Made by a program: the position numbers and the translations under genes. From NCBI GenBank assembly GCA_040769165.1, contig JAXGLP010000001.1, positions 1,091,165-1,155,164 on the forward strand: a DNA stretch of 64,000 nt, in the 5' to 3' direction. This document shows, in pieces, positions 38,877 to 42,173 of this stretch (position 1 is its first letter; every line of letters begins with the position of its first letter). The notes beneath the pieces are model-generated. The model did no database searches, was not told where the DNA came from, and worked only from the letters and a program-made list of their open reading frames with translations. The stretch comes from Armatimonadota bacterium (GTDB lineage Bacteria; Armatimonadota; UBA5829; DSUL01).

Positions 38877-39658
38877 TGCTCGAGTTGTTCTCCTCCCGTC
38901 CGGGCCACCCGCCTGTGTCGCTTGTCACGGGCGCATCGCGTGGCATCGGCGCGGCGATCGCGCGTGCCCTCGCAGCCGGAGGCTCGGATGTGGCCATCAC
39001 GCATCTTGACGACGACGCGAACGCGCGCCGTGTTGTGTATGAAATCCGTCAGATGGGGCGGCGCGCCATACAGATGGATGCTGACGTGGCGAGCGCGACG
39101 GAAGCGGAGTCGGCCGTGCGGAACACCCTTCAGGAGTTCGGGCGCATAGACATTCTCGAGTGCAATGCGGGCATCTGCCCGTTTGCGGAGTTCTTCGACA
39201 TCAGCGAGGAGATGTGGGACCGCGTAATTGCGGTCAACCTGAAGGGAGTCTTCCTGACGGGGCAGATGGTGGCGCGGCATATGGTGGAACGCGGGGGAGG
39301 CGGGCGCATCATCACGACCGGCTCCATATCGAGCATGGTGGGCGGAAGCAGGCAGGCGCACTACTGCGCGTCCAAGGCAGGTGAGAACCTCTTGATCAAG
39401 AGCATGGCCATCAGCCTGTCTCCGCACGGGATCACCTGCAATGCCGTCCTGCCGGGGACTATTGAGACCGACATCAATCGAATGGCTCTGGCCGATCCGG
39501 CTCTCAGGACACGGCTGGAAGAAGGGACCCCGGCGGGCAGGCTGGGGCGGCCCGATGACGTGGCGGCCGCTGCTGTCTGGCTGGCGTCACGCGAAGCCGA
39601 GTGGACAACCGGTTCGCTCGTTGTTGTGGATGGAGGAACTACATCGGTGCTTCAGTAA
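38876..39658 (+). CDS. SDR-family oxidoreductase, L-rhamnose 1-dehydrogenase-like
   Basis: [52 protein letters not shown]; these motifs resemble the LRA1/RhaDH type as I recall it. Confidence 0.75.
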
Positions 39659-39716
39659 CGGGCAGATGGCACGCGCTGCGCGGGTGCTGCAGTATGGGGG
39701 GCGGTGGAGAGGAAGT

Positions 39717-40436
39717 ATGAGAAAACCGGGCATTCGCAGGGGCTTCACCCTTATCGAACTTCTTGTTGTCATCGCCATCATCGCTATTCTGGCGGCGATC
39801 CTGTTTCCAGTGTTCGCCCGCGCTAAGGAAGCGGCCCGCAGGTCGGCCTGTCTGAACAATCTGAAACAGATCGGTATCGCGGTGATGATGTACGTGGACG
39901 ACTGGAAGGGCCACTATCCGCGCGAAGCGCAGCACGTGCCGCCGCCGGGCTTCTCTCAGGGGTCGAATTGGGACTCCACCGGTTCGATGGCGACAGGCTG
40001 CATGTGGACGTTTCGGGGCTACCTCAAAGAGCGGAAGGTCTGGATGTGCCCGTCAGGAGGCCGGCGGAAGTTCAAGGCGACCGTGTACGACCATCCATCG
40101 CGAGTCCCGGTCGGGCAGATATGGGCTCAGGTCGGGTGGATTGTGCATCCCGAACTTGGAGGGGAGATCTGCACCAACTACTCGGCATACGCGTTCGCAA
40201 GGCATCCCGGACAGCCGCACCCTCCCAACGATCCCCTGTGCGCGCTTGGAAAGACGCCGGACGAGTTCTACAGCGACTGCCTTCGCGACGGCTACAACGC
40301 GTGGCTGATCCACGACAGCTACAGCTACAGTCAAGACGCGAGCAAGTACTTCTTCCCGCACAAGGGTGGAATCAGCGGCATCTTCTACGACGGCCACGCG
40401 AAGTGGTTCAAAGACACGCGCGTCAATTTCGACTGA
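39717..40436 (+). CDS. Prepilin-type N-terminal cleavage/methylation protein (DUF1559-like, H-X9-DG)
   Basis: [44 protein letters not shown]; C-terminal [15 protein letters not shown]. Confidence 0.93.
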
Positions 40437-40463
40437 GTAGAGACTGTGGGGGAGGCGGAAGCT

Positions 40464-40613
40464 AAAAGACCTGCCGGGGGGACATCCCTTCTCTCTGGCC
40501 CCGTCTTTCCGATATCCCCCCGGTCAGGTTATGTGAGCGCCCCGGCGCTTCCGGGGCTGATACTTGCTTCCAGACGAGCGCGCCGCATGAACGGCGCCGC
40601 GGTGACTTACCGC
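40464..40613 (-). ncRNA. Candidate ~150-nt structured small RNA, unassigned
   Basis: Extended -10 promoter upstream, four consecutive hairpins, and a terminal 18-bp stem followed by CTTTT. See findings. Confidence 0.55.
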
Positions 40614-40619
40614 AAAGCT

Positions 40620-40646
40620 ATTATACCAGCGATTTCTGTCCGTCAA
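40620..40646 (-). promoter_or_regulatory. Promoter of the candidate small RNA
   Basis: Minus strand: TTGACG (40646-40641), 15-nt spacer ending in TGG, TATAAT (40625-40620). The spacer is short, but the extended -10 is consensus. Confidence 0.55.
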
Positions 40647-40716
40647 ACACAGATGAAGTCAAGGTGCAAGAGAATTCTGCATCGCGTTGGCCTGGGAGGA
40701 GTGCGGTCGCAGGAAG

Positions 40717-40745
40717 AAGCCCCGGAAGGGCTGGTTCCGGGGCTT
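40717..40745. terminator. Hairpin downstream of tRNA-Glu, probable terminator
   Basis: 11-bp stem AAGCCCCGGAA / TTCCGGGGCTT with a 7-nt loop; weak U-tract. Confidence 0.5.
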
Positions 40746-40770
40746 TCTGCGAATGGTCAGGTGTAATGCT

Positions 40771-40843
40771 TACCCCCAACGGGATTCGAACCCGTGCTGC
40801 CGCCGTGAAAGAGCGGTGTGCTAGGCCACTGCACTATGGGGGC
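40771..40843 (-). tRNA. tRNA-Glu (anticodon TTC), CCA not encoded
   Basis: Minus strand GCCCCCATAGTGCAGTGGCCTAGCACACCGCTCTTTCACGGCGGCAGCACGGGTTCGAATCCCGTTGGGGGTA: acceptor stem, anticodon arm CCGCT-CTTTCAC-GGCGG, T-loop GTTCGAATC. Confidence 0.97.
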
Positions 40844-40881
40844 GCGGCTGGCCGGTGCTGCACTGATGTGCGGGCCGAGGG

Positions 40882-40911
40882 ATTTTACCCGCGCCCTGCC
40901 AGGGGTGTCAA
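40882..40911 (-). promoter_or_regulatory. Sigma70-type promoter for tRNA-Glu
   Basis: Minus strand TTGACA (40911-40906), 18-nt spacer, TAAAAT (40887-40882). Confidence 0.65.
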
Positions 40912-40952
40912 CGCGAGGCTTATGAAAAGCTTGAAACGCTGCCCCTCAGGCG

Positions 40953-40982
40953 TTGACAGGAATTCCCGCATTCCGGTAGGAT
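40953..40982 (+). promoter_or_regulatory. Sigma70-type promoter for guaB-guaA-hpt
   Basis: TTGACA (40953-40958), 18-nt spacer, TAGGAT (40977-40982); GGAGG RBS at 40996-41000. Confidence 0.6.
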
Positions 40983-41012
40983 GTCGAAAACGCCAGGAGG
41001 TTCACCCTATAT

Positions 41013-42173
41013 TTGGACATCCTTCTCGGGGGGCATAAATGGGCCCGGCGCAGCTACGGCTTTGACGAGGTGTCGGTAGCTTGCGGGTCCACCACCACTG
41101 ACCCGGATGACACAGACACCTCATTCTCGCTAGGACCGTTCGACTTCCGTATTCCGATCCTTGCCTCCGCGATGGATGGCGCCGTCAGTCCGTCTGTCTG
41201 CCAGCTTATGGGCAGGCTCGGCGGGCTGGCAGTCCTCAACCTGGAAGGCCTCTTCACCCGTCACGCTGACTATCAGGCACAACTTGACCGCGTCATCGGC
41301 GCGTCTCAGGACGAGGTTGTTCCGCTTCTTCAGAGTCTGTACCGTGAGCCGGTAAAGCCGGATCTGGCGGCGGAGCGCGTTCGTGAGATCAAAGCGGACG
41401 GCACCGTTTCGGCAGCGTCTGTCACTCCCGCGGCATTCGCAACGGCCGGGAAGGCGGTACTGGAGGCAGGGCTGGACATCCTTGTCATTCAGTCCACTGT
41501 GACTTCCGCGCACCATCTGTCGCAGAAGGGTTCGGCGGTCGGAATTGCCGATATCTGCCGTAACAGCGGGGTGCCGGTCGTTGTGGGCAATGTTGTGACG
41601 TACGAAGGGGCGTACGCACTTATGGAGGCTGGCGCGGCGGCGATTCTTGTTGGCATCGGGCCCGGCGCCGCATGCACCACAAGGCGTGTGTGCGGGGTGG
41701 GGGTGCCGCAGGTTACCGCGGTTGCCGATGCGGCGGCCGCGCGGGACGACTTTTACAGCCTTACGGGCAGACGGGTCGCGGTGATAGCCGACGGAGGCAT
41801 GCGCACGGGCGGCGATGTCGTGAAGGCGATTGCGGCAGGATCCGACGCCGTCATGATCGGGTCGCCGATTGCGGCCTGCGCCGAGGCGCCGGGCCGAGGG
41901 TGGCACTGGGGCATGGCGACAGCCCACCAGGGGCTGCCCCGCGGAACCCGCATTCGGGTCGGTGAACTGGGGCCTCTCGAACAGATTCTGTACGGGCCCG
42001 CGAAGTCGGACGACGGAACGATGAACTTTATCGGCGCTCTCAAGGTTGCTATGGGCTACTGCGGGAAGCGCACCATCCGAGAGATGCAGACTGCGGATCT
42101 GGTTGTGGCGCCGGCGATTCCGACAGAAGGCAAGGCCCAGCAGCGGGCGCAGAAGGTGGGGCAGGGCAGTTGA
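41013..42173 (+). CDS. guaB: IMP dehydrogenase-related protein, GuaB3 family (no CBS domains)
   Basis: [37 protein letters not shown] (catalytic Cys), IADGG, HWGMAT. Confidence 0.9.

Follow-up and report, generated by a model that had tools for sequence, protein, structure and literature searches.

GadY of Escherichia coli is a cis-antisense small RNA (sRNA) that lies opposite the 3' end of gadX. In a stretch of 64,000 nucleotides from an Armatimonadota genome (the window), we analyzed a candidate RNA gene of about 150 nt, located on the minus strand at 40464 to 40646, with a tRNA-Glu gene on one side and a pilin-like gene on the other. Like GadY, it would be a small RNA with its own promoter, placed in the gap after a convergent gene and complementary to the 3' end of the convergent mRNA. 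It differs from GadY in that the two share no sequence or Rfam similarity, the candidate is more structured, and its overlap with the mRNA is predicted here from sequence. The candidate also resembles Hfq-type sRNAs, such as Spot 42 and RyhB, in its sigma-70-type promoter, in an open stretch resembling a seed, in an A/U-rich patch (ACAUAA) that precedes the terminator hairpin, and in its U tail, with an Hfq gene in the genome, whereas its U tail is only 4 nt long, its terminator loop is 24 nt, and no target enrichment was observed. Besides, its position directly downstream of a tRNA gene recalls the tRNA-linked spacer RNAs 3'ETS-leuZ and rtT; unlike in those cases, the candidate is set apart from the tRNA by a terminator hairpin and by a conserved promoter of its own. 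The multihairpin architecture, the presence of some GGA motifs, and a CsrA gene in the genome are reminiscent of CsrB and RsmZ, but the GGA motifs of the candidate are not enriched and are neither conserved nor placed in loops.

We put at about even the chance that this locus is an independent, lineage-specific small noncoding RNA gene, ~150 nt long and read from the minus strand, that has an extended -10 promoter and ends in a terminator-like hairpin. Such an RNA probably acts by base pairing, and the most concrete mechanism is that it is possibly antisense to the convergent DUF1559 mRNA. A first-pass annotation, made from the letters of the DNA, had described the locus as a stand-alone sRNA; the promoter, the single copy, and the strand assignment were borne out in our analysis, whereas a discrete transcript and covariation were not.

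The two flanks agree with their earlier description. The upstream neighbor, on the same strand, is tRNA-Glu(UUC) (40771 to 40843, minus strand), for which a consensus promoter scan found TTGACA-18-TAAAAT (40911 to 40882, minus strand). This site and another promoter-like site, TTGACA-18-TAGGAT (40953 to 40982, plus strand), which belongs to an IMPDH-family gene, are arranged back to back. The CCA end of the tRNA is not encoded, the acceptor stem being followed by A and then AGC (40768 to 40771, minus strand). The tRNA terminator hairpin, GCCCCGGAA...TTCCGGGGC (40719 to 40743), carries a U-rich run on each strand, UUCUUCC (minus) and UUUCUGCG (plus), and could stop transcripts arriving from both sides, including the DUF1559 mRNA. 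Farther out, the IMPDH-family gene, GMP synthase, SDR, and M32 carboxypeptidase provide a housekeeping context.

On the other side of the candidate is a convergent gene (39717 to 40436, plus strand) with a prepilin-type N_methyl domain (Pfam PF07963) and a DUF1559 domain (PF07596). The long open reading frame (ORF) over this gene spans 39441 to 40436 (plus strand); the true start is likely M93 of this frame (39717), since the N-terminal methylation motif and an SD sequence (GGAGAGGAAG) point to this position; the long frame begins ~92 codons too early. Its N terminus gave 42 tblastn matches (N-terminal look-alikes) in the genome. The stop codon lies 27 nt from the predicted 3' end of the RNA and 32 nt from the terminator stem, and no good terminator is seen in the 3' untranslated end ahead of the two-way hairpin of the tRNA. 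The 3' end of the DUF1559 mRNA must run into the RNA locus. Because no minus-strand gene follows downstream, the RNA is not a leader.

The first-pass annotation had placed a TGG-TATAAT motif, a start at G40613, four hairpins, a 24-nt loop, and a terminal CUUUU on the minus strand, and all of these elements were found where they had been placed. The extended -10 promoter TGGTATAAT occupies 40620 to 40628 (TGG at 40628 to 40626 and TATAAT at 40625 to 40620, minus strand) and is identical in the homologue from the only other species of the genus. From promoter geometry, transcription is predicted to start at G40613, 7 nt after the -10 element (a 6-nt AGCTTT spacer). A -35-like TTGACG is present at 40641 to 40646, for which the homologue has CTGATA; a simple consensus promoter scan did not flag the RNA promoter because TTGACG is only 15 nt from the -10 element. 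The 33 nt around the extended -10 element contain one change in the homologue. Farther upstream, a 27-nt block (40649 to 40675, minus strand) is identical at 26 of 27 positions, compared with 104 of 124 for the whole spacer. The TTGACT inside this block is too distant from the -10 element to be its -35. A TCTGT...ACAGA inverted repeat begins in the block, with the ACAGA arm at 40635 to 40639, so that its arms bracket the -35 position, and the block with its repeat is a possible regulator site.

Genome-wide, TGNTATAAT occurs at 66 sites, compared with 14.6 expected from composition (4.5-fold overrepresentation). Put differently, TGN precedes 66 of the 224 TATAAT hexamers, and the full sequence is TGGTATAAT in 29 cases. 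Most of the sites have no recognizable -35, and four stand directly before tRNA genes. A tRNA or an ORF with an SD sequence was found within 250 nt downstream for 26 of the 66 sites, compared with 16 of 66 when the wrong strand was examined and 203 of 1,000 random positions. Judged from these counts, TGNTATAAT is a real, overrepresented promoter type in this genome, and it seems to be the organism's principal promoter type. With the motif overrepresented genome-wide and TGGTATAAT kept in the homologue, sequence evidence indicates that the candidate RNA has its own promoter.

RNAfold recovered the same four helices as the first-pass annotation had described. Hairpin 1 (GCGGT/AAGTC/ACCGC; 40599 to 40613, minus strand, as for all elements of the RNA) has 5 bp and a 5-nt loop and begins at +1. 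Hairpin 2 (40580 to 40597) is present with the 6 bp and 6-nt loop first assigned to it, to which the minimum free energy (MFE) fold adds a terminal U·G pair, giving 7 bp and a 4-nt loop. It is followed by a 22-nt linker, GCUCGUCUGGAAGCAAGUAUCA (40558 to 40579), which is unpaired in the centroid fold and is a candidate seed. Hairpin 3 (GCCCCGG/AAGCG/CCGGGGC; 40539 to 40557) has seven G-C-rich pairs and a 5-nt loop. The terminator-like hairpin 4 (40469 to 40529) consists of 18 bp with one bulged A, includes a U·G pair (alignment columns 100/132), and closes the purine-rich 24-nt loop GGAAAGACGGGGCCAGAGAGAAGG (40487 to 40510). The CUUUU tail (40464 to 40468) forms the predicted 3' end, and the homologue has a U-rich CUUUCUGUUCUGCUU here. 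The 18-bp stem and CUUUU are terminator features, but the loop is 24 nt and the tail has only 4 U; a terminator scan did not flag the hairpin because its loop exceeds 8 nt, and a loop of this size is unusual for an intrinsic terminator.

The fold of the RNA exceeds chance. Its MFE is -75.5 kcal/mol, compared with -60.4 ± 3.7 kcal/mol for 200 dinucleotide shuffles (z = -4.14), none of which folded as well. Among native 150-nt segments of the same genome (64.4% GC), 41 of 3,000 chosen at random folded as well, as did 2 of the 1,539 among these that matched the RNA to within ±3% GC. The plus strand of the locus folds more weakly (-69.0 kcal/mol; z = -3.26).

The candidate does not belong to a known RNA class as far as Rfam can tell, in accordance with the first-pass annotation, which had recognized no known pattern. 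At the gathering threshold, Rfam 15 gave only the tRNA, and at E ≤ 10 there was no credible match in the RNA; the best were Guanidine-III on the opposite strand, with 16.2 bits against a 36-bit cutoff, and MIR1507. The SRP RNA is located elsewhere in the genome (C2:413315-413414). We rejected 6S RNA as an identity, given that the candidate has four local hairpins rather than a rod with a central bubble and that the 6S model (RF00013) has no match in either the genome or the window, although this model matched only 5 of 14 control genomes and missed the other 9. The genome, which is 96.8% complete, has no Rfam 6S match. A dispersed REP-like repeat was also rejected, since both BLAST and a covariance model found a single copy in the 4.0-Mb genome.

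BLAST over 41 genomes, including the genome of origin, found one true relative, in the only other species of the genus (G001). This homologue is 88% identical over 234 nt and is syntenic, with tRNA-Glu upstream and a DUF1559 gene downstream. The covariance model matched 2 of 53 genomes of the class, and in a 151-genome sample of the phylum it gave four hits at E ≤ 0.1, namely, the two known copies and two hits in coding sequence. No homologue was found outside the genus in 4 other genomes of the family or in 51 other genomes of the class, and there was no true hit in the phylum sample. The additional covariance hits, two marginal ones at the family level among them, were discarded as spurious: G001:C74 falls where the coding region of an ankyrin-repeat protein ends (its 3' end), and G003:C6, G096:C8, and G071:C5 are inside or on coding regions. 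Scanning public collections for a 20-mer of the 24-nt loop yielded one hit in metagenome contigs and two in genome contigs, of which one is the known homologue and the other two are without the surrounding structure. All five other genomes of the family have the tRNA-Glu, and the DNA downstream of it is unrelated in the four that are outside the genus. As judged from these genomes, the synteny is limited to the genus.

The RNA is identical at 136 of 150 positions between the two species, compared with 73 of 73 for the tRNA, 270 of 320 for three flanking intergenic pieces, and 473 of 612 for third codon positions (first and second codon positions, 96 to 99%). Its conservation exceeds that of the intergenic DNA (binomial P = 0.018) and that of third codon positions (P = 1.6 × 10^-5). 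From this two-sequence alignment, conservation of the RNA appears modestly above the intergenic level and far below that of the tRNA. Of 74 paired positions, 4 carry a substitution, as do 10 of the 76 unpaired ones, a difference that is not significant (P = 0.16); one loop also contains an indel.

Conserved, covarying homologues had been named as a check on the proposal, and the single same-genus homologue does not provide them. None of the 37 pairs shows a compensatory change between the two available sequences; 33 pairs are unchanged, one U-A pair became U-G, and three are broken (U-A to G·A, C-G to C·A, and G-C to G·G). In the homologue, hairpin 1 has lost its closing U-A pair, and hairpin 2 has the C-G to C·A change together with changes in three of its four loop bases. 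The linker is conserved at 21 of 22 positions. All seven pairs of hairpin 3 are unchanged, with one change in the loop, and 16 of the 18 pairs of hairpin 4 are unchanged, the other two being the U-A to U-G and G-C to G·G changes; the 24-nt loop has one substitution and a 1-nt insertion. The homologue folds into four hairpins with an unexceptional energy (-69.1 kcal/mol; z = -1.52; 15 of 200 shuffles as good), and its opposite strand reaches -58.9 kcal/mol, i.e., 10 kcal/mol worse. Besides, the U-A to U-G change retains pairing on the minus strand only. The minus strand is favored in both species, which upholds the strand choice that the first reading had drawn from G-U pairing.

The 19-codon ORF pointed out at first is present and reads MRRARLEASISPGSAGALT followed by a stop codon, but it is not conserved: its ATG is AGG in the homologue, a TGA stands immediately before it, and the frame has three nonsynonymous changes and one synonymous change. 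With its start lost in the homologue, this small ORF was rejected as a gene. Moreover, any frame across the RNA is broken because of the 1-nt indel in the loop. Comparison of the two sequences indicates that the RNA is noncoding.

For expression, we turned to public sequencing runs selected by words from 40300 to 41000, whose contigs were placed on 39900 to 41300 by exact matches only, with no strand information and at a depth of 2 to 4. Among the 24 runs listed, 20 contain at least part of the selected region, 14 of them being DNA runs that contain all of it, and three activated-sludge metatranscriptome runs contain 26 to 48% of its words. Exact contigs were obtained from run X15 (40422 to 40678, 257 nt, and 40754 to 40904), run X16 (40271 to 40453, 40518 to 40668, and 40738 to 40888), and run X17 (40616 to 40766). 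Run X19 showed the tRNA only, within an otherwise unlike contig. Over the three runs, the exact contigs fall within 40271 to 40904, with no cover at 39900 to 40228 or 40934 to 41300; this confinement is a weak hint of expression, the runs having been chosen on 40300 to 41000.

A discrete transcript from 40613, as predicted in the first-pass annotation, was not apparent in these contigs, which continue through the promoter as well as the terminator. The predicted start is overrun by each of the two contigs that cover the RNA body, by 65 nt (to 40678) and 55 nt (to 40668), and the contig at 40422 to 40678 also passes the U tract by 42 nt, bridging the DUF1559 coding end and the whole RNA locus. 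The contig at 40616 to 40766 is wholly upstream of the predicted start, between the tRNA and the start, and runs through the tRNA terminator region. These contigs fit a plus-strand DUF1559 mRNA whose 3' end extends to the two-way terminator of the tRNA, read-through from the tRNA, or DNA carry-over; being strandless, they are compatible with a discrete minus-strand RNA but do not demonstrate one. A 760-nt contig of run X17 matches exactly only over 40860 to 40926 (67 bases) and then continues into unlike sequence, and it may come from a related strain with a different neighbor or be a chimera.

If the locus is an independent sRNA gene, transcription would start at or near G40613 from the -35-less extended -10 promoter TGGTATAAT and would end in the U tract at about 40464 to 40467. 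The transcript would then consist of two 5' hairpins, the 22-nt open linker, the third hairpin, and the long terminator-like hairpin. Provided that both are made, this RNA and the DUF1559 mRNA would be perfectly complementary in cis, and their mirrored hairpin loops could start the pairing. Targets in trans might also be reached through the conserved linker or loop.

A target search with the exposed loop, as suggested at first, brought out no target that stands apart, nor did a search with the linker. Complements of the linker in the genome include three 15-mers and two 14-mers, with the sites in coding regions. We discounted these matches as ordinary, since 12-mers present in seven or more copies occur at 12% of genome positions; on the RNA-sense strand, the sites plausibly encode L-V-W-K/N. 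The linker, spacer, and loop paired no better with the 42 DUF1559-like 5' regions than with 600 random segments. Over 3,239 crudely called translation start regions, the linker and the loop did no better than 12 shuffled seeds each: the best duplex of the linker (-30.1 kcal/mol) was matched or beaten by 2 of 12 shuffled seeds and that of the loop (-31.1 kcal/mol) was beaten by 9 of 12. These searches point to no trans target, and the convergent mRNA is the only partner that the sequence suggests.

Several other explanations of the locus were weighed against an independent sRNA gene. The region could contain no separate sRNA at all and instead be a structured 3' untranslated region or terminator of the plus-strand DUF1559 mRNA, or a trailer of tRNA-Glu, with TGGTATAAT silent or incidental. 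Convergent genes need terminators, and the tRNA terminator hairpin is followed by UUUCU on the plus strand; the contigs tile 40271 to 40766 continuously, from the DUF1559 gene to just past that hairpin, ignoring the sRNA boundaries, and the three stem pairs broken in the homologue fit this explanation as well. However, in both species the plus strand forms the less stable fold, and hairpin 4 is followed on that strand by UAUGUGAG, with no U tract. The tRNA has its own terminator, which argues against a trailer, and the promoter is unlikely to be incidental, being a perfect copy of a motif supported genome-wide, kept in the sister species, and correctly spaced from a hairpin whose first base is +1. 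Overall, we regard this explanation as a real but rather unlikely possibility, and a structured 3' end can coexist with an sRNA in the form of overlapping transcripts. It is quite improbable that the locus is nonfunctional recent sequence, e.g., a relic beside a tRNA gene, where insertions are common, with a promoter-like motif and GC-rich hairpins present by chance. The occurrence in one genus only, the differing DNA after tRNA-Glu in all four other genomes of the family, the lack of covariation, and a conservation only modestly above the intergenic level would be expected of such a relic, but conservation is above the neutral proxies, and the promoter and U-rich tail are kept. Besides, plasmid and phage records gave no match to the RNA, and an integration-site relic gained no support, since the tRNA 3' end is not repeated in the window.

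A protein sponge had been suggested in the first-pass annotation together with a check for csrA and hfq, and both genes are indeed present in the genome. Such a decoy, of the CsrA type or similar, would use the GGA motifs and the large purine-rich loop. The RNA contains five GGA motifs, and the loop end AAGGGAUGU resembles the CsrA SELEX consensus. This number is nevertheless at the level of composition (3.9 ± 1.6 by chance; at least five in 33% of shuffles), and only three of the five are kept in place in the homologue, where GGAUGU became GGGUGU. Moreover, three motifs fall within a stem or overlap the junction of stem and loop in hairpins 3 and 4, one is in the linker, and one is in the 24-nt loop, whereas CsrA/RsmA sponges carry many GGA motifs, mostly in hairpin loops. 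We thus consider a sponge very unlikely. An orphan sensor-terminator, riboswitch-like or protein controlled, in which hairpin 4 gates antisense transcription into the DUF1559 gene, would account for the order of promoter, structured region, and terminator, for a target that is antisense with no downstream gene, for the well-conserved linker and 24-nt loop, and for contigs that extend past the terminator. Yet no riboswitch family was matched at E ≤ 10, and the covariation and wide distribution that true aptamers usually show are lacking, leaving this explanation highly improbable. We likewise see only a slight chance that the locus represents a new structured RNA class, in which the linker and 24-nt loop would sense a signal, decide termination at hairpin 4, and so gate antisense transcription into the DUF1559 gene, and which would be the first regulatory RNA described for this little-studied phylum.

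As it stands, an independent sRNA gene at this locus is a plausible but unproven, ordinary lineage-specific candidate, one of many, and it would not surprise a specialist. Among the titles and abstract openings that we consulted, no paper on small RNAs in this phylum was found; if real, the RNA would, as far as those titles and openings go, be the first concrete sRNA candidate in the phylum, and it would link RNA regulation to the large family of DUF1559 pilin-like genes. The locus is worth annotating and would make a useful target in stranded transcriptomics. Of wider use is the finding that TGNTATAAT promoters lacking a -35 are frequent in this genome (G000), where example sites lie at C1:83747, C1:1708066, C2:830035, and C4:50349.
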